From positions 4,649 to 68,648 of the forward strand of contig JADYYG010000038.1 of assembly GCA_020853755.1 (NCBI GenBank): 64,000 nt of DNA. The letters are read 5' to 3'. Both the position numbers and the translations under genes were made by a program. Position 1 is the stretch's first letter; each line of letters starts with the position of its first letter. Below the pieces are notes generated by a model that made no database searches, was not told the DNA's origin, and was given only the letters and a program-made list of their open reading frames with translations. The DNA comes from Dehalococcoidia bacterium (GTDB lineage: Bacteria; Chloroflexota; Dehalococcoidia; Tepidiformales; Tepidiformaceae). This document shows, in pieces, positions 4,738 to 58,465 of the stretch.

Positions 4738-5979
4738 TTACGGGTGGGGCGTTCGAACACCCCGCATCGACCACCAGGTGGCGGCCGCGGCCACGATCAG
4801 GGCGACCGCGCAGAGGCGGAAGGCTGTTTCGTAGGCGGCGGCGCTGGCCCCCACGGCGCTCACGGCCACCGGACCAAGCGCGCGCGCCGCGGCGACGAAG
4901 AGCGCCTGCAGCCCGATGATCCGGCCGAAGTACGGCCCCGCGAATTGTTCGGAGGTGACGAGCGCGCGCAACGGGTAGACCGCCCCGAAGACCGCGCCAT
5001 AGACGGCGATGTAGAGCCAGACCTGCCACCAGCTGCCGGAGACGCTCGCGAGCGCGGCGGCCGTCCCGAGGAGGACCATGCAGACCGCGAGGAGGATGAC
5101 GCTCGGCACGCGCCCCGAGGCCATCGGCAGGAGCAGGCGCGCAGGCAGGCTGATGATGCCGGTGAGGGCGATGGCGTTCGCCACCGGCGCCTCGGCGAAG
5201 CCGCGCGATTCGAGCTGGGCGATCATGTGGAACGAGAATCCGCTGATCGCCACCGTGGCCACGACGAAGGCGAGCGTGAACCACCAGAACCGCCGGTCCG
5301 CGTGGTGCAGCCCGGAGCGCGCCTCGCGCAGGAACCGCGACGGCGTGAGGCGGTCTCCTTCGGCCGTGCGTTCGAACGGTTCGCGCAGGAGTGCCGTGAC
5401 CACCAGGCCAACCGCCATGAGGATGATGCCGAGCACGATCACGGCTTCGCGCCAGCCGAGCGACGAGACGAGCCAGCGGGTGAGCGGCGTGTAAATAGTG
5501 ATAGAGAAGCCGCCCAGCAGTGTGAGCACACCGTAGGCCCGCGGCCGTTCGGAGGCGGCGAACCAGCGGTTCATCAGCACATAGACCGGCTCGTAGAAGG
5601 TGGCGGCCATCGCCGGGCCACAGAGCAGGGCCATGACGAGGAAGAACTGCCAGCCGGTCTGCGTGGCTGCCAGCAGCGCGAGGCCGGCCGCGCCCACCGC
5701 CGAGCCTGCCGCCATCAGCCGCCGCGTGCCGATCAGGTCGGCGATAGCGCCGGCGAAAATGCCCATCGCGCCGGAGACGAGGAGGGCCGCGCCGAAGGCG
5801 AAGGAGACGGTCCTCGGGCCGAATGTGCCACCCGGGCCGGACTCGGTGACGAGGACAGAGAAGGCGTAGCTGAGCGTGCCGTAACTGGTGTTGATGAACA
5901 TGGCGGCGGCGAACACCTGGAGCCAGCGGCGCGAAGAAGCCACTTGCCAGCCATGCGAAAATGCGCGGGCGACGGTCAT
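4738..5979 (-). CDS. MFS transporter
   Basis: 413 aa and about 12 hydrophobic segments. Typical MFS loop motif GAIADLIGTRR after TM2. Confidence 0.85.
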   Translation of the reverse strand: MTVARAFSHGWQVASSRRWLQVFAAAMFINTSYGTLSYAFSVLVTESGPGGTFGPRTVSFAFGAALLVSGAMGIFAGAIADLIGTRRLMAAGSAVGAAGLALLAATQTGWQFFLVMALLCGPAMAATFYEPVYVLMNRWFAASERPRAYGVLTLLGGFSITIYTPLTRWLVSSLGWREAVIVLGIILMAVGLVVTALLREPFERTAEGDRLTPSRFLREARSGLHHADRRFWWFTLAFVVATVAISGFSFHMIAQLESRGFAEAPVANAIALTGIISLPARLLLPMASGRVPSVILLAVCMVLLGTAAALASVSGSWWQVWLYIAVYGAVFGAVYPLRALVTSEQFAGPYFGRIIGLQALFVAAARALGPVAVSAVGASAAAYETAFRLCAVALIVAAAATWWSMRGVRTPHP

Positions 5980-6136
5980 CGGGTGGGTGCTACCGGGGAA
6001 TTGCTGGGGATATGACCATCCGCCATTAACCTTTCTCCGGCCAGCCCGTTATCTCTAGTACACAAGGCGCAACCGTGCCTATGGTGGAAAGGAGGACCTC
6101 GGCCTCGCAGATTCCGGTACGGCCCAGGGGGCTGGT

Positions 6137-6706
6137 TTGGGCAATACTACGGTAGAAGAGCTGGCGCCGGAGTTCGACGAAAAAGCCATCGTCGATGCGG
6201 CGCAGGGAGGGGATCAAGCAGCGCTTGGCGCGCTCTACGATCACTACTTCCCACGCGTCTACCGCTACGTCTCAACCCGCCTTGCCTCAGCGGAAGACGC
6301 AGAAGATGTCACCACGGAGATCTTCCTCCGGATCATCGAAAACCTGCGCTCTTTCACCTGGCGAGGACTCCCCTTCGCAGCCTGGGTCTTTCGCATCGCA
6401 CGGAACGAGGTTGTCTCGCACGTGCGCCGCCAGAAAGTCCGTTCAGGCGCAGCCCAGCTCACGGAATCGATCCAGGACCCATCGCCCGATCACGTGGACG
6501 AAATCGTCACCGCCTTCACCATCCAGGAAGTCCGTGAAGCCACGGCCCTCCTGCCCGAAGCGCAACGCCAGGTGATCACCCTCCGCTTCAGCGCCGGCCT
6601 CTCCGTCGCCGAAACGGCCCAGGCCCTGGGCAAGACCGAGAACAACGTGAAAGTCCTCCAACACAAAGCCATCGCAAAACTCCAGGGGATGGTGCGTCCG
6701 CAGTGA
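6137..6706 (+). CDS. ECF-type RNA polymerase sigma-70 factor
   Basis: 189 aa with region 2 (YDHYFPRVYRYV, FAAWVFRIARNEV) and region 4 (LPEAQRQVITLRFSAGLSVAETAQALGKTENNVKVLQHKAI). TTG start is 6 nt after AGGGGG. Confidence 0.9.
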   Translation: MGNTTVEELAPEFDEKAIVDAAQGGDQAALGALYDHYFPRVYRYVSTRLASAEDAEDVTTEIFLRIIENLRSFTWRGLPFAAWVFRIARNEVVSHVRRQKVRSGAAQLTESIQDPSPDHVDEIVTAFTIQEVREATALLPEAQRQVITLRFSAGLSVAETAQALGKTENNVKVLQHKAIAKLQGMVRPQ

Positions 6707-7728
6707 TCCGCCATTTGTTCGAACGCAAAGCCACTCCCCAGGCTGAACTCCTCGCCGAAGCCCAGCCCCTGCTCGATGACGGGCTGGACCTCGACTTCGT
6801 CCTCGGGCTTTTCCCCGATGACACCGACTGGCTCGAACCACTCCTCGAAGTGACCACGGGGATCGCCGAGGCGGCCGCGTCCGAGCCGCCGAGCTACTAC
6901 TTCGAAGCCTCGCTCAAGTCGCAGTTCCTCAATGCTGCTCGCAACCCGAAGCCGGCGCAGCCTGTGGTCATGCCGGCGCCGGTCTATTCGCCCGCCCGCA
7001 CCGCTGTCGCCAGCCTCTCCGTAGCCGGCGTGGCAGCCGCGGTCGGTGCACTCGCGCTTGGCTTCATCACGGCCGGCAACGCCGTCCCCGGCGATTGGAA
7101 CTACACCTTCAAGCTGGCCAACGAACGCCTCGAATACACCCTCTCGCGCGGTGACGGCCGGGTCGATGTCCAGCTTCACCAGGTCGAGAACCGCGTGGTC
7201 GAACTGCAGAAGCTCAGCTCGCGCGGCGATGTCTCGCCTGAGCAGCTCGAACGCGCGCAGCGTGACCTCGCCGACCTCCAGCAGATAGCCGGACAGCGCG
7301 ACCTCGACCAGATGCAGCGCGCCCGCCTCGAAGGCATCGGCCGCCAGGGCAAGGCGGTCGTCGTCGCTATCAGCGAAAAGCAGCCCGACATCCCGCAGGA
7401 AACGGTCGACGCGACCGCCGCCGGCTTCGATGCCGTCGCCACCCTTGGCGCCAGCGGCCCGACGGAGATCCCGACCGCAACTGCGACGGCAACGGCCAGC
7501 CCCACGGCTTCGCCAACCACGCCGCCAACCGCTTCGCCGAGTGCATCGCCTTCGGCCACGGCCGAGCCAAGCGCGACCGCGAGCCCTCCGGCCACCACGA
7601 CGGCCACCCCTGAGCCGACCGCTTCGGCTTCGCCCACGGGCAGCGTCACCGCAGAGCCGACCTCGACAGGCACAGCCACCCCGGGCGAAACCGAGACCTC
7701 GACGCCCCCGGCGACGCATACGCCCTGA
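6703..7728 (+). CDS. putative anti-sigma / membrane protein with coiled-coil ectodomain and PT/SA-rich tail
   Basis: GTG start overlaps the sigma stop (GTGA). There is one TM helix (VASLSVAGVAAAVGALALGFI), a coiled-coil-like region and a C-terminal low-complexity T/P/A/S tract. Position directly after an ECF sigma gene. Confidence 0.75.
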   Translation: MIRHLFERKATPQAELLAEAQPLLDDGLDLDFVLGLFPDDTDWLEPLLEVTTGIAEAAASEPPSYYFEASLKSQFLNAARNPKPAQPVVMPAPVYSPARTAVASLSVAGVAAAVGALALGFITAGNAVPGDWNYTFKLANERLEYTLSRGDGRVDVQLHQVENRVVELQKLSSRGDVSPEQLERAQRDLADLQQIAGQRDLDQMQRARLEGIGRQGKAVVVAISEKQPDIPQETVDATAAGFDAVATLGASGPTEIPTATATATASPTASPTTPPTASPSASPSATAEPSATASPPATTTATPEPTASASPTGSVTAEPTSTGTATPGETETSTPPATHTP

Positions 7729-8836: not shown

Positions 8837-8865
8837 TTGAGACGTATCAGAACGTATGTTCTAAT
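8837..8865 (+). promoter_or_regulatory. sigma-70-like promoter (TTGAGA-N17-TCTAAT) overlapped by a Cheo-type LexA/SOS box GAACGTATGTTC (8850..8861)
   Basis: Read directly from the sequence. The -35 is 8837..8842 and the -10 is 8860..8865. The arms AGAAC / GTTCT form an inverted repeat with 4-nt spacing. It sits about 35 nt upstream of the GGAGGA SD and the ATG at 8902. Confidence 0.6.
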
Positions 8866-8901: not shown

Positions 8902-9210
8902 ATGCACGAAGTGCTCGAACTGCCCGCCCGCGTTGATGCGCTGCCCGAGTACATCGACTACACCGATTCGGGGTGCGACCTCTACCCGTCGTGCCTGAAC
9001 TGCCCGCTGCCGCGCTGCCGCTACGAAGTAAGCGGCGGGGCAAGCGCGATGCTCCGCATGGGTCGCGATGCCAGCATCATCGCCGCATCGAAGCGGTACG
9101 GCGCGACCATCGATGACCTGGCGCGCACCTTCGGGCTCTCCCGCCGGACCATCTTCCGCGTTCTCGAAAAGGAACGGTCGCCGCGCGGCCTCCACGGCCG
9201 CGAGGGATGA
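8902..9210 (+). CDS. small Cys-rich HTH DNA-binding protein
   Basis: 102 aa with a GGAGGA SD 7 nt upstream. It has an N-terminal C-x5-C-x2-C-x4-C cluster (CDLYPSCLNCPLPRC) and a C-terminal HTH (IDDLARTFGLSRRTIFRVL). Confidence 0.75.
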   Translation: MHEVLELPARVDALPEYIDYTDSGCDLYPSCLNCPLPRCRYEVSGGASAMLRMGRDASIIAASKRYGATIDDLARTFGLSRRTIFRVLEKERSPRGLHGREG

Positions 9211-28487: not shown

Positions 28488-28868
28488 ATGCCGATTCCAG
28501 TTGTAATGGGCGCCCAGATCATGTGTTCCTTTGGGACCGGACCCGGGTCGTTAATCGTGGTCCCACAGGGGCCGCCAGTGCTGATCGAAGGGAAGCCCGC
28601 CGCAACGGTGATGGACCACATCCCGTTCGTGAACATCGCGCCGTTCCCGACCTGCATCGCGCCGACGAACCCGGCCGGGATGGCGAAAGTGCCGCCAACG
28701 CCCGGCCCGTGCATCCCGGTGACCACGGCCCCCTGGGTTCCCCCGTCACCGACAACTCAGATCAACAAGAAGCCGGCACTCTGCATGGGCGCGACGCTGA
28801 TGTGTACCGCCTGGGCGGGCGTCATCACCATCGTGAACCCCGGCGCCACCAAGGAAATCGTCAACTAG
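28488..28868 (+). CDS. DUF4280 (PAAR-like spike-tip) domain protein
   Basis: 126 aa. The pattern VVMGAQIMCSFGTGPGSL..GKPAATVMDHIPFVNIAPFPTC..PGPCIPVTTAPWVP..KPALCMGATLMC..GVITI follows the DUF4280 Cys/Pro pattern closely. Confidence 0.8.
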   Translation: MPIPVVMGAQIMCSFGTGPGSLIVVPQGPPVLIEGKPAATVMDHIPFVNIAPFPTCIAPTNPAGMAKVPPTPGPCIPVTTAPWVPPSPTTQINKKPALCMGATLMCTAWAGVITIVNPGATKEIVN

Positions 28869-37979: not shown

Positions 37980-38579
37980 TCAGGCTGGCACGTAGAGGCG
38001 GTGCTGGCGCACACGGTTCTTTCGCCCGTAGGTGTGGAGTAGCTGCCGGAAGGCGGTCTGGCGCGCCCGCGCGAGAGCGGCGTACCGTTCGCTGGCCTCC
38101 GGTTGGAGGGTGACGATATTCGTGACGCCGGCTGCCAGTTCGAGCGCCGCATAGGCCGCCGCGCCCGTCACCAGGACGTCCGCCAGGTGGTCCGGCAGCG
38201 TCGAACCATCCTCGTCGAGCACGTGCGAGGCCGTGTAGAAGACGCGCACGTCCGCTCCGTCGGGCGGCGAATCGGTGTGCAGGATGAGTGTTTGCGCCCA
38301 GGTTCCGAAGCCCGGGTAACACGGCGGGTACTGTCCGATGGGGTACTCGACCATCTCCACTTCGATCAGGGCGTCGAGCGCGGAGAGGTCGAGGTCGCGG
38401 CTACCCGCCGTGGTCGCGATGTCCTCGGACAGTTCGCGCGGGATGGCAAGGCTCAGGTCGGAAAGCGCGTGGGCGATGTGCCGGTCGATCTGGTCATCCG
38501 GCCAGGCCGTGGCATCGAGGTCGGACAGGTCGCTGCGGACGCGCCCGCGGATATCGGTGAGGGTGGTCATGGCGGTCAC
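37980..38579 (-). CDS. phage-associated hypothetical protein (possible head-completion / neck adaptor)
   Basis: 199 aa. The pattern LTDIRGRVRSDLSDLD..WPDDQIDRHIAHALSDLSLAIPRE ... RLYVPA resembles proteins I have seen next to capsid genes in prophages. The assignment rests on recollection only. Confidence 0.4.
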   Translation of the reverse strand: MTAMTTLTDIRGRVRSDLSDLDATAWPDDQIDRHIAHALSDLSLAIPRELSEDIATTAGSRDLDLSALDALIEVEMVEYPIGQYPPCYPGFGTWAQTLILHTDSPPDGADVRVFYTASHVLDEDGSTLPDHLADVLVTGAAAYAALELAAGVTNIVTLQPEASERYAALARARQTAFRQLLHTYGRKNRVRQHRLYVPA

Positions 38580-38663
38580 CGTAGCCAGCCGCCCGGCGAG
38601 CGCGAACGGCCCGATGGCACGCCCGGCGGTTCCGCGTTGAACCTATGCGTGGACCCTGTGGCG

Positions 38664-42482: not shown

Positions 42483-43496
42483 TCACATTCCGTCATCGAA
42501 GTAGCTGACCTGCTGTCCTGTGCAGTTGTACAGGACAGCGTCGTCGTTATCCGAATTGCTCCACTGGCTTGCAGCGGTCCACCACAGGGTAGCCGGCGTG
42601 TTGGGGAACGCCGGCGTTCCAGACCGAATCTGTACTGAGCCGTTCAGGGTGAAGTTGCCGGGGAAGTCGAACCGCTGCTGTCCCTTCACCGAGATGACGT
42701 ACCACCCAGTCATGTTTCCCGAGCCCGAGACGGTCACCACCTCTCCGAACTTATCCAGACCGGTGATCGTTGCAGTGGCAGCCTGGCATAAGCTGCCGAC
42801 CGTGGGTGTAGGGGTAGCTGTCCCCTGCGGCGTGGGGCTTGGCGTCGCGGTTGCCGTCGGCGATTGAACCGGGGTGGCGGTTCCGGGAACACCGACCATG
42901 CCGCATACAGGCCAGAGGCCGCGCTTCTCCGCCTTCGCCTCTTGCTGTGCCGCCTCGATGCGTGCCCGGTACTTTACGTCGGGAGGGTACACCGCCAGCT
43001 CGGCGTACCCGTCGCGAACGAGGCGCTCGTTGAACAATGCGCCGTCGAGCCAGACGTAGCGCAGGTTTCGCCCGAATGAATCCTTGTTCGACACATCCTT
43101 TTCAAGCGCCACCTGGTGGTTGAGGAGTGCCTCGTTCGTGTAGCCCGCCGCCTGCTTCCCGAAGCATTCACCCGGGTTTATCTCGGGTGTGTTCACAAGG
43201 ATGAGCCGGACACGCCCGGGTTCGGCGCAACCGGCGACGTCGATAGTGTCCCCATCGACAATGTGTGTGACTGTGCAGATGGCCATGCCCGCCGGTGTGC
43301 TGGCGGGCATGGCCGTTGCGGTTGCTGTCATCGCCGGAGTGGCTGGAGGGGCTGCGGAGTCAGCTGCGAGTTGCGGTAGCCGAGCGCGCACCAAGGTGCT
43401 CGAAGCACTGCTGGTTCGTTCGGAGGAGACCATCGCGAGAACGCCGAGCGCGAGACCGCATCCGGCAAGAAGCGCCGCGGAGAACCTGCCGTTCAT
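42483..43496 (-). CDS. secreted thermonuclease (SNase) fused to a lamin-tail-like C-terminal domain
   Basis: 337 aa with a signal/anchor. The SNase core is HIVDGDTIDV..RVRLILVNTPE..GRNLRYVWL. A PT linker follows, then a C-terminal ITGLDKFGEVVTVSGSGNMTGWYV...NSDNDDAVLYN, which is LTD-like. Confidence 0.75.
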   Translation of the reverse strand: MNGRFSAALLAGCGLALGVLAMVSSERTSSASSTLVRARLPQLAADSAAPPATPAMTATATAMPASTPAGMAICTVTHIVDGDTIDVAGCAEPGRVRLILVNTPEINPGECFGKQAAGYTNEALLNHQVALEKDVSNKDSFGRNLRYVWLDGALFNERLVRDGYAELAVYPPDVKYRARIEAAQQEAKAEKRGLWPVCGMVGVPGTATPVQSPTATATPSPTPQGTATPTPTVGSLCQAATATITGLDKFGEVVTVSGSGNMTGWYVISVKGQQRFDFPGNFTLNGSVQIRSGTPAFPNTPATLWWTAASQWSNSDNDDAVLYNCTGQQVSYFDDGM

Positions 43497-43649
43497 AAAG
43501 CCGCTCCGATCTGTACGTTTGTCTCGAATCTATCCCTGCCTGCACTCGTCGGGAAGAGGTATCGCAAAACTCGTCATCGGTTGACGCGAACAGCTATCCC
43601 CGGTGACTCGAATCACGTGATATGCTCCGGCACCGGGTGGTATTGCGAA

Positions 43650-44261
43650 ATGAACGGTGAACCGCGGAAAGACTACGGTGCATTCGACAACTTCATGCGC
43701 TGGCTTGGGCGAACAATCGCTCGGATGAGTAAGCGATGGTGGCGCGTGAGTCCGCGGTGGCGGATCGAAACCACAGCTATCGCCGTGCTGGTCCCGCTCA
43801 TCGCCGCCGCATCGGCCTGCGGTGGGGAATCGAGTTCCTCCCCAGCTTCTCGCGATGAAGATACTTCTTCCGGCGTGACACCCACAGCCCTCGCGTCAGC
43901 CAGCAGCACTGCGACGAGTGCAATCCAGGGCTTCCTGGGCACACCGGCGGCGAGTTCTCCGGCTACAGCTTCCGGCGTTGCCACGGTCGCGGCGACTGCC
44001 ACCACTGTGCCATCAGCAACTCAAGTCCCGGCGACTGCAACAAAGATGCCGCCCACGCCAGTACCACCCACGCCAATACCGCCCACGCCAATACCGCCCA
44101 CGGCCACCGCCACCGCCACTTCGGCGCCTTCGGTGTATTACCCGAACTGTGCTGCGGTCCGCGCGGCGGGCAAGGCCCCGCTTTATCGCGGTGACCCCGG
44201 GTATCGCTCGGGGTTAGACCGGGACAATGACGGCATTGCGTGTGATACGGTCGGGAACTAG
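43650..44261 (+). CDS. secreted/lipoprotein with C-terminal Excalibur calcium-binding domain
   Basis: The C-terminus YYPNCAAVRAAGKAPLYRGDPGYRSGLDRDNDGIAC is the Excalibur signature. It also has a TM/lipobox-like AAASAC, a PT-rich linker and a 15-bp tandem (PPTPI). Start is uncertain: ATG 43650 or TTG 43581. Confidence 0.7.
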   Translation: MNGEPRKDYGAFDNFMRWLGRTIARMSKRWWRVSPRWRIETTAIAVLVPLIAAASACGGESSSSPASRDEDTSSGVTPTALASASSTATSAIQGFLGTPAASSPATASGVATVAATATTVPSATQVPATATKMPPTPVPPTPIPPTPIPPTATATATSAPSVYYPNCAAVRAAGKAPLYRGDPGYRSGLDRDNDGIACDTVGN

Positions 44262-44278
44262 CCGCTCGCCGGTCGCCC

Positions 44279-45052
44279 CTACACGTGGCGGGTGCTGATG
44301 CCGCCGTCCACCGGGATGATGACGCCGGTGATGTAGGCGCTCGCCCGCGAGGAGAGGAAGATGGCGGTTCCGGCCATGTCGTCCGGTTCGCCGAGGCGGT
44401 GACGCGGGTTTGTCGCAATCATGCCGGCGCCGAAGCGCTGGATGGTCTCGTGCATCATCTTGCTTTCGAACGGCCCCGGCGCGATGGCGTTCACGGCGAT
44501 GTTCCTGTCGGCCAGGTTGTGGGCCAGGTGGCGGGTGAGCTGGTGCACCGCCGCCTTGCTCGACGAGTACGCGTAGGTCTCCATCGCCGGCGCCTGGATG
44601 CCGTCGATCGAACCGATGTTGATGACGCGCGCCGGGTCTTCCTGGGTGGCCGCCGCTTCGAGCTGGGGCAGGAGGAAGCGGGTGAGGTGGAAGATGCCCT
44701 TCACGTTCAGGTTCATCACCTTGTCGAAGGCGTCATCCGGGTAGTCGGCGATGGGCGCGCCCCAGGTGGCGCCGGCGTTGTTCACGAGGACCTGGAGCTT
44801 CGGCTCGCGCTTCGCGATTTCGTCGGCGAGGTAGCGGCAGCCCGCCTCTGTGCCGAGGTCCGCGGGGATGGAGATGCACTGGCCGGACTTCGAGAGTTCG
44901 GCGGCCACGGCGTCGCAGACGTCGGCCTTGCGCGAGGAGATGTAGGTCTTCGCGCCGGCCTCGACGAAGCCGCGGGCGATCATCAGGCCGATGCCGCGCG
45001 AACCCCCGGTGACGAGGGCGACTTTGCCGGAAATATCGAAGAGGCGGGACAT
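44279..45052 (-). CDS. SDR-family oxidoreductase (RhlG-like)
   Basis: 257 aa with TGGSRGIG, NNAG and YSSSK motifs. Confidence 0.9.
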   Translation of the reverse strand: MSRLFDISGKVALVTGGSRGIGLMIARGFVEAGAKTYISSRKADVCDAVAAELSKSGQCISIPADLGTEAGCRYLADEIAKREPKLQVLVNNAGATWGAPIADYPDDAFDKVMNLNVKGIFHLTRFLLPQLEAAATQEDPARVINIGSIDGIQAPAMETYAYSSSKAAVHQLTRHLAHNLADRNIAVNAIAPGPFESKMMHETIQRFGAGMIATNPRHRLGEPDDMAGTAIFLSSRASAYITGVIIPVDGGISTRHV

Positions 45053-45143
45053 TGGCGAACTCCTGGGGGCCCGTGCTGCGGGCAGACTGTTGTGCCGCGA
45101 TTGTGGCCGATCCGGGGCATGCGCGCGAAGCCGCCGGCGCGCG

Positions 45144-45171
45144 AAAAGGCGGCCCCGGTACGGCGCCGCCT
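45144..45171 (-). terminator. intrinsic terminator after the capsid-like gene
   Basis: The minus strand reads AGGCGGC-gccgtaccggg-GCCGCCT-TTTT, 29 nt downstream of the stop at 45200. Confidence 0.6.
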
Positions 45172-45199
45172 CTCGTGATTTGGCCGGGCCGGACTGGCG

Positions 45200-46090
45200 T
45201 CAGGCCGCGCGCACGCCGGTGAGCCGGGCCAGCTTTACGCTGTTGAACAGCGCGAGCCCCGCGTACCACTTCACCCGCACGCGGCTGGCGTCCTTCGTTT
45301 CGAGGTTGCCGACGCGGTCGACGGTGAGGCCGCCGGGAGCGGTCAGCCCGCTGAGCGCTCCCTCGCCGAACTGCATCGCGTAGATGGTGCTGCAGTCGTT
45401 GCTCGTGCCGACGGTTTTCGCGTCGCTGATGTAGTCGCAAATGCCGATCGGCACGCCGTCGTAGTACTGGACCATGTGGCCGAACTGGTCGCGGTCCGCT
45501 TCGAGGAAGCCGCCGCTGGCGCGGGCCAGTTCGTTCAGCGTGCGCCGGGTGCGGCGGCTCATCAGCAGCAACTCCGGCTTGCCGCCGCGCACCTTGTCGA
45601 TCATCTCGTCGAGTTTCGCCAGCGTGAGGACGGCGCCGTTCGTGCCCATGCTGACCGATTGCCCGGCGGCGCAGAGCACGTCGATGCCGTCGAAGCTCAG
45701 CGGGTCCACGCCGTCGTCGCCGTTCACGAAGGTGTCGTCGAAGAGCGCCTGGACGGCCTTCGCCTTGAGCTGGACGACCGCGGCTTCGAGGTCCTGGATG
45801 TTCGAACGGGTGGACTTGAGGAAGTTATCGACGTCCGCGTCGCCGCCGAGGATTTTCAGCGTCGCGGTCGCCTGGGTGAAGGTCGGCGTGCTTTCGTCCC
45901 AGTCGTCGCCGACGTCGTAGAAGCTGGCCGAGGGAGCGGCGTTTTCACGGTTGTAGGTCAGGCCGTTGCCGACGATCTCGACGAACGGCAGGCGCTGGAG
46001 GATGGGGCTTTCGAGCGCGATCGTCTCGATCACGCCGGTGAGCAGCGAGTCGTTGCTCAGTTTCGAAGCTTCGACGAGGGTCAGGGCCAA
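45200..46090 (-). CDS. phage major-capsid-like protein (presumed HK97-fold)
   Basis: TTG start at 46090, 7 nt after a perfect AAGGAGG, giving 296 aa. The N-terminus ALTLVEASKLSNDSLLTGVIETIALESPILQRLPFVEIVGNGLTYNRE resembles a recurrent phage MCP family from memory. The upstream 76 aa of the track ORF are implausible. Confidence 0.65.
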   Translation of the reverse strand: MALTLVEASKLSNDSLLTGVIETIALESPILQRLPFVEIVGNGLTYNRENAAPSASFYDVGDDWDESTPTFTQATATLKILGGDADVDNFLKSTRSNIQDLEAAVVQLKAKAVQALFDDTFVNGDDGVDPLSFDGIDVLCAAGQSVSMGTNGAVLTLAKLDEMIDKVRGGKPELLLMSRRTRRTLNELARASGGFLEADRDQFGHMVQYYDGVPIGICDYISDAKTVGTSNDCSTIYAMQFGEGALSGLTAPGGLTVDRVGNLETKDASRVRVKWYAGLALFNSVKLARLTGVRAA

Positions 46091-46172
46091 GTGGGCGCCT
46101 CCTTGTGGGTTGGCTCGATGGTTGCGAGCCGCGGGAGGAACCCGAAGGGCCGGTTGGCACGAACGCAGAAGG

Positions 46173-47558
46173 TTATCCGGCCGGCCCGGCAGTCTGTGCC
46201 TCGGTGGCCGCTGCCGGGCCCGAACCCTGCGCGAACCAGAGCCACGCGAACCCGGCGAGACCCGCGACCGTGGACGCCGCGAGGATGCCCAGCTTCGCCT
46301 CGTCCACCATGCTGGCGTCATTGAAGGCCAGGTTCGTGATGAAGAGCGAGACGGTGAAGCCGATGCCTGCGACCAGCCCCGCGCCGAGCATCTGCCTGTA
46401 GCCCAGGCCGCCGGGCAGGTCAGCGAGGCGGAGGCGGACGGCGAGGAAGCTCGCGAGGAGGATGCCCGCCGGTTTGCCGAGGGCCAGGCCGGTCGCCACG
46501 CCGAGGCTCACCGGGCTCGCCAGCGAATCGGACACGAGCGAGGACGAGATGGCCACGCCTGCATTCATGAACGCGAACACCGGGACGATGAGGTAGCTGA
46601 CCCACGGGTGGAGCATTCGTTCGAGGCGGTCCAGCGGCGATTCGCTGCCCCGGCTCAGGGCCTCGAACTCGCCGAGGAGTTGCTGGGCGCGGTCACCGTC
46701 GCCAGCGGCAAGCGCCTGCCGGTAGCTGGCGAGGAGGTCGACGGCGCTGGCTTCGAACGCTTCCCGGGCGAACTGCGGCCGCGCCGGCGTGAGCGCTGCA
46801 AGGATCACGCCGGCCAGCGTGGCATGGATGCCGCTCTTGTAGACGGCCATCCAGAGCGCCACGCCGAGGACAACGTACACGTCGGTGCTCTGAACCCCTG
46901 CGCGCTTCAGGGTAACGATGGCGGCGAGGACAACGGCCGCCCACGCTACCGCTTCGAGCGAGATGCTGCCGCTGTAGAACACGGCGATGACGAGGATCGC
47001 GCCAAGGTCATCGACGATGGCGAGGGCGAGGAGGAACACCTTGAGCGAGACGGGCACGCGCCTGCCGAGGAGGGCGAGGACGCCCATTGCGAAGGCGATG
47101 TCGGTCGCCATGGGGATGCCCCAGCCGTGGGCGCTGTCGCTCCCCAGGTTCCAGCCGGCGTAGATGAGTGCGGGCACGGCCATGCCGCCAAGGGCCGCGG
47201 CGACGGGGAGGGCAGCCTTGCGCCGCCCGGCCAGTTCGCCGGTCAGCAGTTCGCGCTTGATTTCGAGGCCGACGACGAAGAAGAAGACCGTCATCAGGCC
47301 GTCGTTCACGAGGTGGCCGAGGCTGTCATCGATCGTGAACGCGCCGAAGTCGGCCTGCAGGCGGGCGTGGACCAGGTCGGCGTAGCGCCCGTCCCACGCC
47401 GAGTTCGCCCAGGCGAGGGCGATCAGCGTGGCCGCGAGCAGGAATACGCCGCCCGAGGCCTCGGTGTTGACGAACTCGCTGATCGGCTGGATGAAGCGCT
47501 CGCGGACGAAGCGCGGGCCGGGCCGCCAGAGCCGGGAAAGCGTCTCCATTCCGTCCAT
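46173..47558 (-). CDS. nhaA: Na+/H+ antiporter NhaA
   Basis: 461 aa and polytopic, with characteristic NhaA segments (FLLALAIVDDLGAILVIAVFY, the DD pair). Confidence 0.9.
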   Translation of the reverse strand: MDGMETLSRLWRPGPRFVRERFIQPISEFVNTEASGGVFLLAATLIALAWANSAWDGRYADLVHARLQADFGAFTIDDSLGHLVNDGLMTVFFFVVGLEIKRELLTGELAGRRKAALPVAAALGGMAVPALIYAGWNLGSDSAHGWGIPMATDIAFAMGVLALLGRRVPVSLKVFLLALAIVDDLGAILVIAVFYSGSISLEAVAWAAVVLAAIVTLKRAGVQSTDVYVVLGVALWMAVYKSGIHATLAGVILAALTPARPQFAREAFEASAVDLLASYRQALAAGDGDRAQQLLGEFEALSRGSESPLDRLERMLHPWVSYLIVPVFAFMNAGVAISSSLVSDSLASPVSLGVATGLALGKPAGILLASFLAVRLRLADLPGGLGYRQMLGAGLVAGIGFTVSLFITNLAFNDASMVDEAKLGILAASTVAGLAGFAWLWFAQGSGPAAATEAQTAGPAG

Positions 47559-47656
47559 TCAAACACACCTGCGGGTGTCTTCGCGCCCGGTACCCGCCGG
47601 GCAACGAAAAAGGGCGCCCGCTGGGCGCCCTCTCCAAGCTTGCCGGGTGGCTGGCG

Positions 47657-48886
47657 TTACAGCCGTTCGATGATAGTGGCCGTGCCCATGCCGCCGCCGG
47701 TGCACATCGCGATGAGCGCCGTCGACTGGTTGCGCCGCTCGAGTTCGTCGAGCGCGGTCTGGATGAGCATACCGCCGGTCGCGCCGATGGGGTGGCCGAG
47801 GGCGATGGCGCCGCCGTTCACGTTCAGCTTCTCGTTGCCGAGGTCCATCTCGCGCTGCCACTTGAGGACGACGGCCGCGAAGGCTTCATTGATCTCGAAG
47901 AGGTCGATGTTCTCCTTGCGCATGCCGGCCTTCTTCAGAACGAGCTGTGTGGCCGGGGCCGGGGCCGTCAGCATGATCACGGGCTCGCTGCCGGCTGTCG
48001 CGGTCATGACGACGCGGCCGCGCGGCTTCAGGCCGCGGGACTTCGCGTACTCCGGCGATGCGAGCAGGAGCGCGCTCGCGCCATCGACCACACCGGAGGA
48101 GTTGCCCGCGTGGTGGACGTGATTGACCTCGCTGATCTGCGGGTACACGGCTTTGCAGATCTCGTCGAAGCTGCGCGTGTCGTTCGGCGGGTTCATGGCG
48201 CCCATCTTCGCGAACGACGGGTTGAGGCCGGCCAGGCTCTCCATCGTGGTGCCTGCGCGGGGGTATTCGTCGTGGTCGAGGGCGAGCGTGCCGTCATCGT
48301 TGTGAATCGGGACGACGCTGCGCTTGAAGTGGCCCGCATCGATGGCGGCGGCAGCACGGCGCTGGCTTTCGACGCCGAGGCGGTCGCAGTCTTCGCGGCT
48401 GAAGCCCTCAACCGTCGCGATGAGGTCGGCCGAGATGCCCTGCGGAACCAGCGGGTACTGGGCGTAGAGGTGGGCGTTGTTCGCCGTGAAGCCGTCGACG
48501 CTGAGCGGCGCCGTGCGCGACATCGATTCGATGCCGCCGGCGACGACGAGATCCTGCTGTCCGGACATCACGCTCATCGCCGCCACGTTGACGGCCTGCT
48601 GGGCCGAACCGCAGAAGCGGTGGAGGGTGACACCGGGGACGCTCACCGGCCAGCCTGCATCGAGCGTGGCCATGCGGGCGATGTCCATCGCATGGTCGCC
48701 CACGCCGGACCCATTGCCCATGATGACGTCTTCGACGTCTGCGGGGTCGAAGCCGGCGCGTTCCTGCAGGGCGTTGAGGACCTGCGCGAGGATGCGCTGG
48801 GGGTGGATGTGGGTCATGCTGCCGACGCCCTGCTTGCCGCCTCCGCGGGGCGAGCGGACGCCTTCGATAATCCAGGCTTCAGACAC
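47657..48886 (-). CDS. acetyl-CoA C-acyl/acetyltransferase (thiolase)
   Basis: GTG at 48886 (VSEAWIIEGVRSPRG) after GGAGAG. The active-site Cys context is RFCGSAQQA, and the C-terminal CTGGGMG motif is present. Confidence 0.9.
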   Translation of the reverse strand: MSEAWIIEGVRSPRGGGKQGVGSMTHIHPQRILAQVLNALQERAGFDPADVEDVIMGNGSGVGDHAMDIARMATLDAGWPVSVPGVTLHRFCGSAQQAVNVAAMSVMSGQQDLVVAGGIESMSRTAPLSVDGFTANNAHLYAQYPLVPQGISADLIATVEGFSREDCDRLGVESQRRAAAAIDAGHFKRSVVPIHNDDGTLALDHDEYPRAGTTMESLAGLNPSFAKMGAMNPPNDTRSFDEICKAVYPQISEVNHVHHAGNSSGVVDGASALLLASPEYAKSRGLKPRGRVVMTATAGSEPVIMLTAPAPATQLVLKKAGMRKENIDLFEINEAFAAVVLKWQREMDLGNEKLNVNGGAIALGHPIGATGGMLIQTALDELERRNQSTALIAMCTGGGMGTATIIERL

Positions 48887-58316: not shown

Positions 58317-58465
58317 AGCTCACCAAGGGTAAGCGGCAAGCCTGTGGCAGGGAATCCGCGTGTGAACCCGGGCTCGCCGGCGCAACTGCTGAGTGATTTT
58401 GTCCGAAGCGCGGTGACAAACCTCCCTTCGCCGTCGGGTGCGAAGGAAAACACCCTTGTCCCGCG

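Follow-up and report, generated by a model that had tools for sequence, protein, structure and literature searches.

To our knowledge, the gene transfer agents (GTAs) that have been characterised genetically all come from a few lineages, namely Alphaproteobacteria, Brachyspira and Bartonella. The Rhodobacter capsulatus agent, RcGTA, keeps its head–tail genes in one ~15-kb cluster. Counting structural and regulatory genes together, its genes are spread over five loci (PMC9662315). A GTA gene set, by the definition given there, cannot be packaged whole, and the particles carry mostly random host DNA and deliver it to other cells. Of interest is how frequently phages become domesticated in this manner, and how a scattered set of such genes is coordinated. 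Here we consider a lone major capsid gene in a 64,000-nucleotide stretch of DNA from a Dehalococcoidia bacterium of the family Tepidiformaceae (Chloroflexota; contig JADYYG010000038.1, positions 4,649 to 68,648; hereafter the window). Judging from gene order in related genomes, this gene evidently belongs to a recurring head–neck gene set that has been split up and whose pieces carry a common upstream motif. It is probable, though far from certain, that the capsid is one part of a vertically inherited, SOS-linked, GTA-like particle system of phage origin that is owned by the host.

To which gene set does the capsid belong? Genes were called in all retrieved homologous loci (labelled L004, L114 and so on, with coordinates local to each) and their neighbours clustered. 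In relatives whose capsid is 69–76% identical, the capsid gene lies inside a co-directional set with a compact order: a ~110-aa protein, the large terminase, a ~95-aa helix-turn-helix (HTH) protein, the portal (PF05133, 4.5e-23), a protein in the scaffold position, the capsid, and then one to three small or medium proteins, an SU10-type adaptor (PF24175), a protein here called c2 (650–780 aa) and one called c5 (70 aa). The scaffold candidate is a ~170-aa coiled-coil protein. In orthologous loci the capsid gene comes after this gene and the portal gene, and the terminase gene is close by. In L114 the set spans ~11 kb, with acyl-CoA dehydrogenase/HIT genes on one side and moaC/moaA on the other. 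The left flank recurs in L113, and in other genomes the set adjoins ruvB and valS. Metagenome contigs with capsids 77–78% identical to the window capsid keep the compact order, and host genes break up the module to a varying degree between genomes. None of the genes in the compact clusters was assigned to an integrase, replication or lysis family, and among the retrieved loci orthologues were never seen inside complete prophages, where the original prediction would have had to place them all for its reading to fail. As a side observation, the IMG/VR contigs L084–L110 (4–14 kb) hold only the compact head–neck module and nothing else phage-like; these "viral" contigs may be fragments of host chromosomes classed as viruses.

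Besides the capsid, the window holds a large terminase, an SU10-family head–tail adaptor, c2, c5 and the HTH protein, the six module genes being dispersed among housekeeping genes over 8.9–60.8 kb (Table 1). The Walker A, Walker B and nuclease Asp/HDD motifs of the terminase are invariant in 17 orthologues. Adaptor homologues occur in 56 loci, mostly directly downstream of the capsid gene, and c2 comes after the adaptor in more than 30. Residues ~94–190 of c2 carry an Asp-box/BNR-like SxDxGxT signature with weak matches to sialidase beta-propeller profiles (E ~0.02), which would be compatible with a propeller-containing nozzle protein. The window HTH protein is 50–54% identical to the products of the cluster HTH genes of L062, L063 and L113 and has weak Mor, Sigma70_r4 and late-activator matches. 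No informative Pfam, PHROG or NCBIfam match was obtained for c2, c5, c13, c69 or the small upstream protein c45, and neither the adaptor nor c2 had a tblastn match in 50,697 phage records. The window contains no Rfam family and no tRNA gene, and the genes that were scanned included no recognisable integrase. Two further open reading frames (ORFs) were considered as module members and rejected: the 173-aa ORF upstream of the terminase, which encodes a Pro/Thr-rich protein and not a small terminase, and a 189-aa ORF past the adaptor, which has a match only in L006 and is taken as a host gene.

What ties these scattered genes together? In every genome of the lone-capsid clade, a motif of the form GTG(C/A)CA, 6–7 nt, CC(T)T(C/G)G lies ~70 nt upstream of the capsid gene, and it is kept whatever gene sits upstream. 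A 24-nt position weight matrix (PWM) was built from 46 capsid-upstream sequences, with the window and its near-twin L004 left out. On both strands of the window, its three best matches fall upstream of the capsid, adaptor and c2 genes, and the motif is placed likewise upstream of c2 in L009, L015 and L113; in 20 simulated windows the scores peaked at 11–18, with a maximum of 17.8. Across 4.1 Mb of retrieved DNA, 76 sites score at least 15. Capsid genes account for 51 of these, and 16 of the other 25 precede a gene for portal, c2, terminase, scaffold or adaptor. Moreover, a metagenome pattern scan for a conserved portal peptide turned up lone portal genes among ordinary genes in L140 and L144, each preceded by the motif (24.8 and 26.7). 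The suggestion of the original prediction that a lone capsid could serve an unlinked particle system thus gains support, with terminase, adaptor, neck protein and regulator in the same window, portal and scaffold in related genomes and a putative promoter motif shared among the pieces.

The motif may be a promoter or an activator site, read directly or indirectly by the HTH protein of the module. A reading as sigma-54 promoter was rejected on spacing (13 nt, not 11), and one as conserved RNA hairpin on its inconsistency across loci; no −10 element is apparent in the aligned capsid upstream regions. Past the motif, an anchored comparison of upstream regions reveals a second conserved block, ACCATCG, in place of which the compact-cluster relatives have a GAAC-N4-GTTC-like box. 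Nine sites scoring at least 15 are not beside a recognised module gene (among them L174 7339, L172 1544, L013 4645 and L032 3890). The one at L140 5777 belongs to a duplicated repeat; the remaining ones may mark further genes of the module or regulon. In L140, a ~50-bp direct repeat that includes the shared motif (5772–5822 and 7010–7062) flanks an insert at 5833–6902 with two minus-strand genes (PIN_10 toxin-like and DUF433/HTH) directly before the lone portal gene, and an AIPR abortive-infection gene adjoins this region. The arrangement looks like a snapshot of foreign genes splitting the module.

The HTH gene of the window has no shared motif upstream. Its promoter region holds the only perfect LexA-type box of the window, and perfect boxes of this type also accompany the stand-alone HTH genes of L012 and L036; in compact clusters, LexA-type boxes lie at the scaffold/capsid promoters or at the left end. 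GAAC-N4-GTTC is the LexA box of Gram-positive-type bacteria, is said to have been used in a paper on the LexA regulon of Clostridium difficile, and is reportedly also in use in Dehalococcoides. Neither lexA nor recA, sought as an internal control for the box, is present in the window, and ruvB of other loci served instead: perfect CAGAACGCCTGTTCGC boxes lie ~45 nt upstream of ruvB in L057 (19013), L065 (18989) and L067 (19024), suggesting that the box marks the SOS regulon in this lineage. Together, these boxes point to LexA control of the HTH protein. In L047, the two genes that directly follow the lone capsid gene are divergent (92 aa and 398 aa) and have a perfect TAGAACACATGTTCTA box (4842) between them.

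The gene encodes an HK97-fold major capsid protein. Over residues 4–293 it matches NCBIfam NF045672 (epsilon15 gp7-type major capsid) with 209.8 bits at a cut-off of 75, and it also matches PHROG 212 (major head protein; 2.8e-71) and Pfam PF05065 (E 2.4e-10; 40.7 at a cut-off of 24.2). Single-sequence and narrow-profile searches of PDB sequences gave no match; only a broad capsid profile reached solved capsid proteins, namely entry 8cjz (5e-7) and that of phage BPP-1 (3j4u, 1e-3). AlphaFold 2 supplied with 46 close homologues (79–94% identity) yielded a mean predicted local distance difference test score (pLDDT) of 33, and became confident after 101 distant capsids of Firmicutes phages were added (pLDDT 83.9, predicted template modelling score 0.81). 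The model shows the HK97 pattern of N-arm, E-loop hairpin, spine helix and A-domain. With this model, Foldseek matched 391 PDB entries at E ≤ 0.001. Among the top 50 listed, encapsulins of Family 2 come first, followed by the RcGTA capsid, HK97 gp5 and many phage capsids; the structural matches comprise the RcGTA capsid 6tb9 (E = 5e-13) as well as capsid 9gyi of a capsid-forming phage-inducible chromosomal island (cf-PICI). Comparing a predicted structure with HK97 capsids and encapsulins, as the original prediction had proposed, therefore places the protein within the HK97 fold, with a template modelling (TM) score of 0.82 for the best predicted viral capsid (BFVD) versus 0.69 for solved encapsulins. 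The closest capsid of a cultured phage is 42% identical at most and the closest in IMG/VR 64%, no known phage or IMG/VR contig having one beyond that.

How is this gene inherited? It is intact and single-copy in 84 of 84 loci, where all copies measure 294–296 aa. Relatives number in the thousands in the protein database; the 120 closest are 79–94% identical and 295–306 aa long (nearly all 295–296) and, where named, come with one exception from Tepidiformaceae or Dehalococcoidia. A genome scan found relatives in 161 species genomes; almost all of its best 80 loci carry the label Chloroflexota, and the complete chromosome of Tepidiforma flava is among them. The ratio of nonsynonymous to synonymous substitution rates (dN/dS) against the closest relatives is 0.06–0.17 at dS 0.4–0.7, medians are at most 0.29 throughout, and the ratio stays well under 1 across dS 0.4–2. 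For the same genome pairs, capsid identity is about that of RuvB and valyl-tRNA synthetase (ValRS); it co-varies with the identity of flanking host proteins (Spearman 0.67, 425 pairs), which it equals or exceeds in 77% of pairs. Gene order around the capsid gene is fixed within clades and entirely different between them: nhaA–capsid–SDR (short-chain dehydrogenase/reductase) is common to the window, L004 and L006, an SDR gene adjoins the capsid gene only in the closest relatives (L004–L007), Tepidiforma species have another fixed context, and in ~50 genomes the capsid gene is alone within 10 kb. By these measures the gene is evidently under strong purifying selection and fixed in the chromosome of the whole lineage, and appears to be mostly vertically inherited, co-diversifying with its host.

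At the locus itself, what had been read from the letters alone was upheld. The mechanical ORF reaches up to an ATG at 46321, inside nhaA. The original prediction had instead started the 296-aa capsid-like gene at a TTG 7 nt past AAGGAGG, and this start is supported because the first aligned codon is a start codon in all 84 homologous loci (ATG in 60, GTG in 13, TTG in 11); GGAGG is kept at the Shine–Dalgarno position across these loci. The predicted hairpin with four T, 29 nt past the stop, is likewise present. Taken alone it is unremarkable (z = −1.6 in 68% GC DNA), and a consensus promoter and terminator scan of 44000–47800 found nothing, the hairpin being missed because its T tract has only four T. 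Comparable hairpins—GC-rich, mostly with a T tract, up to 70 nt past the stop and non-homologous to one another—occur in 45 of 48 close relatives, with a median of −36 kcal/mol versus −26 for shuffles. With its own conserved upstream motif and terminator, the capsid gene would form an independent transcription unit. To this extent the claim of a monocistronic gene stands; read-through from nhaA, 82 nt upstream, is possible. Both neighbours are ordinary chromosomal genes of matching codon usage, as claimed (log-odds per codon 0.57 for capsid, 0.46 for nhaA and 0.54 for SDR; score trained on long ORFs of the window and the first 83 retrieved loci). A thiolase gene, on the same strand as nhaA, also lies upstream, the surroundings comprising thiolase, NhaA, SDR, a nuclease and an ABC-F protein, and the GC level across the region is 0.67–0.69. 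Two genes 1–3 kb from the capsid gene encode proteins with a Thr/Pro/Ala-rich linker (Table 1).

Table 1. Features of the window discussed in the text (positions count from its first nucleotide; aa, amino acids)
Feature	Position	Strand	Basis or remark
Perfect LexA-type box AGAACGTATGTTCT (AGAAC-N4-GTTCT)	8849..8862		precedes the HTH gene by ~40 nt; no other perfect copy in the window
Small HTH protein, 102 aa, candidate activator	8902..9210	+	orthologue of the compact-cluster gene that separates terminase and portal
Large terminase gene, 447 aa	28865..30208	-	Pfam Terminase_6C 9.3e-12; PHROG 2 9e-19
DUF4280/PAAR-like gene	28488-28868	+	convergent with the terminase gene, abutting its 3′ end
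Pro/Thr/Glu-rich protein, 173 aa, N-terminal hydrophobic segment	30261-30782	-	52 nt upstream of the terminase
Head–tail adaptor gene, 196 aa, SU10 adaptor family	37980..38570	-	Pfam PF24175, 30.9 bits, cut-off 27
Shared motif, second copy	38598..38621	-	upstream of the adaptor; PWM 19.7, second-best in the window
Staphylococcal-nuclease-domain protein, probably secreted	42483-43496	-	Thr/Pro/Ala-rich linker
Excalibur calcium-binding-domain protein	43581-44261	+	Thr/Pro/Ala-rich linker
SDR gene	44279-45052	-	downstream neighbour of the capsid gene, same strand
Terminator-like hairpin GGCGGCGCCGUACCGGGGCCGCC with T tract	45144..45170	-	23 nt, GC-rich (45170-45148), then TTTT (45147-45144); 29 nt past the capsid stop
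Major capsid protein gene, 296 aa (296 codons), HK97 fold	45200..46090	-	family matches, AlphaFold 2 model, Foldseek
Capsid start TTG and stop TGA	46090-46088 and 45202-45200	-	read from the sequence
Shine–Dalgarno sequence AAGGAGG	46098..46104	-	7-nt spacer to the capsid TTG; read from the sequence
Second conserved upstream block ACCATCG	46116..46122	-	~30 nt past the motif; anchored upstream comparison
Shared motif CGTGCCAACCGGCCCTTCGGGTTC, putative promoter/activator site	46138..46161	-	~70 nt before the capsid start; PWM 25.0, best in the window
NhaA gene	46173-47558	-	upstream neighbour of the capsid gene, same strand
Shared motif, third copy	58412..58435	+	upstream of c2; PWM 16.1, third-best in the window
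Neck/tail protein c2, 689 aa	58466..60535	+	position of a podovirus nozzle protein; putative function
Protein c5, 70 aa	60612..60824	+	always directly past c2; tblastn matches in 31 loci

How might such a system have arisen, and how would it work? An ancestor of Tepidiformia/Dehalococcoidia-type Chloroflexota may have acquired a podovirus-like head-and-neck module in the order small upstream protein, large terminase, HTH protein, portal, scaffold, capsid, adaptor, large neck protein and 70-aa protein, which would have lost, or never had, functions for integration, replication and lysis and was then passed on with the chromosome. In the clade of the window, host genes would have split the module into single-gene units, each with a copy of the motif and its own terminator. 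Upon DNA damage, LexA would be freed from the box before the HTH gene, the HTH protein would turn on the motif-bearing genes, capsids would assemble on the portal with the help of the scaffold, and the terminase would fill them with DNA, giving a short-tailed particle. Since housekeeping genes separate the module genes, which extend across more than 50 kb, a particle would presumably be unable to take up its gene set in one piece, and whatever DNA it packaged would come from the host, as with a GTA; the catalytically intact terminase argues for DNA packaging. Wherever sequence permits a judgement, the set appears to agree with the published definition of a GTA (PMC9662315): capsid, portal, terminase and adaptor have family matches to proteins of tailed phages, and the six module genes are endogenised over several loci. 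Hence, the capsid gene most likely builds a DNA-packaging, GTA-like particle and not an enzyme compartment.

Several observations weigh against this reading. The 64-kb window contains neither a portal nor a scaffold gene; from the intact terminase and the lone, motif-bearing portals of other contigs, we infer that this genome has kept its portal. No lysis gene or receptor-binding fibre was recognised. The best motif copy near the window terminase scores only 8.6 and lies upstream of the preceding, 173-aa ORF (30840–30817), with which the terminase may thus be co-transcribed. Reading GAAC-N4-GTTC as a LexA box is putative here, resting on general knowledge and the ruvB control. In the same genome pairs, identities of terminase (~50%), portal (~66%) and adaptor (~55%) are far below that of the capsid, so the shell could have an additional or a different role; scaffold and c2 are also much less conserved, the reverse of the usual phage pattern. 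Finally, the best matches among solved structures are Family 2 encapsulins (E ~1e-16, TM ~0.69).

Could the particles serve a purpose other than gene transfer? They might resemble PBSX, a defective phage released on DNA damage, and act in killing or signalling to neighbours. The same structural and regulatory evidence applies here as for a GTA-like particle, SOS-type control via a small activator is, as generally understood, a PBSX-like trait, and sequence data cannot separate the two. We nevertheless give a non-transfer role a low chance, well short of an even one: neither a tail sheath or tube nor a module for killing could be recognised, the intact terminase speaks for packaging, and very long vertical retention is typical of known GTAs (PMC9662315).

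Alternatively, the capsid alone could enclose an enzyme encoded elsewhere, as in an encapsulin, the other phage genes being unrelated relics. This second proposal of the original prediction draws on the isolation of the capsid gene in many genomes, on its exceptional conservation within the module and on the structural matches just given, and PF05065 is the annotation of Family 3 encapsulins too, whose genes are often found near SDR genes. Here, however, SDR adjacency is confined to the closest relatives, and neither a conserved cargo or other neighbour nor a biosynthetic cluster was found. With respect to Family 1, the protein has no PF04454 (Linocin_M18) match and the gene no conserved cargo neighbour. 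As to Family 2, no cysteine desulfurase, terpene cyclase, polyprenyl transferase or xylulose kinase gene adjoins it, the capsid profile matches SrpI at E = 0.09 only, and fold similarity at the level observed is common to all HK97 capsids, with predicted viral capsids fitting better. For Family 3, judged by gene neighbourhood, the association is with phage packaging genes and not with a biosynthetic cluster; the single Chloroflexi entry of the encapsulin survey in this family could not be traced, the accessible part of its supplement text containing no mention of Chloroflexi, Tepidiforma or Dehalococcoidia. Scaffold, portal and a catalytically intact terminase are retained in the lineage under the same upstream motif as the capsid. 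An encapsulin role for the capsid gene is hence unlikely, and we would grant the compartment reading as a whole only a slim chance.

That the genes are a decaying prophage remnant, or are kept for a satellite or helper phage without a function at the level of the host, is barely credible: the cluster is indeed phage-derived and fragmented, and IMG/VR does list compact versions as viral contigs, but all copies are intact, under purifying selection and on a level with RuvB and ValRS in conservation, the clusters even in compact form are ~11-kb head–neck units between housekeeping genes and not temperate prophages, no integrase, tRNA or att-type features were seen at these scattered, clade-fixed positions as would befit a cf-PICI satellite, and a set dispersed across more than 50 kb cannot move as a single element.

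If a GTA-like particle is indeed what the capsid gene serves, a class-level lineage of the abundant and poorly studied Chloroflexota seems to keep such a set, and a simple, putative promoter motif that can be scanned for ties its pieces together. There are practical consequences as well, since compact clusters are now listed as viral contigs in IMG/VR and isolated capsid genes like this one may be misread as encapsulins. The claim lends itself to direct testing, since Tepidiforma species have been cultured. We further put forward, as a tentative proposal with the odds somewhat against it, that this is an independently domesticated, podovirus-derived GTA family, ancestral to much of Tepidiformia/Dehalococcoidia, with atomised head genes and a regulon running from LexA to the HTH activator through one dedicated motif. 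Chloroflexota would then have their first such system, and none more dispersed would be known. Full-text literature searches returned no report of a GTA, or of this gene set, in Chloroflexota, and a cryo-tomography paper on Tepidiforma does not mention capsid, phage, prophage, virus, encapsulin or gene transfer.

How, then, does the set compare with known systems? With epsilon15 gp7-, BPP-1- and SU10-type phage head modules it shares the NF045672 capsid, the PF24175 adaptor and a separate scaffold gene upstream of the capsid, but no phage genome surrounds the genes here and their capsid is distant from those in culture. Like cf-PICIs, it is a small chromosomal gene set encoding its own capsid and packaging genes; cf-PICIs, however, are contiguous, integrase-bearing, mobile and helper-dependent, whereas the present set is scattered and fixed, with no recognised integrase. 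In encapsulins of Families 2 and 3, too, the gene for an HK97-fold shell protein stands apart from evident phage genes, yet these families come with conserved cargo or biosynthetic neighbours and without portal, scaffold or terminase. PBSX-type defective prophages of Bacillus are, as is generally known, SOS-linked, phage-derived, kept by the host and have their late genes under a small dedicated factor; unlike the set described here, they lie in one contiguous cluster, are myovirus-like and have killing activity as well as a contractile tail. A further comparison is with RcGTA and the other GTA viriforms, whose head genes also derive from tailed phages, are endogenised and vertically inherited, occupy several loci, answer to cellular or dedicated regulators and are free of integrase and replication genes (PMC9662315). 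The present set differs from RcGTA in its independent origin, its epsilon15/SU10/BPP-1-type proteins and its host phylum, and in head genes that are split into single-gene units; in the absence of a tape measure or tail tube, its particle would be podovirus-like and not siphovirus-like as RcGTA. A domesticated phage particle is known as a kind, and what is new here is the lineage, the podovirus-type parts, the scattering into single genes and the motif they share.

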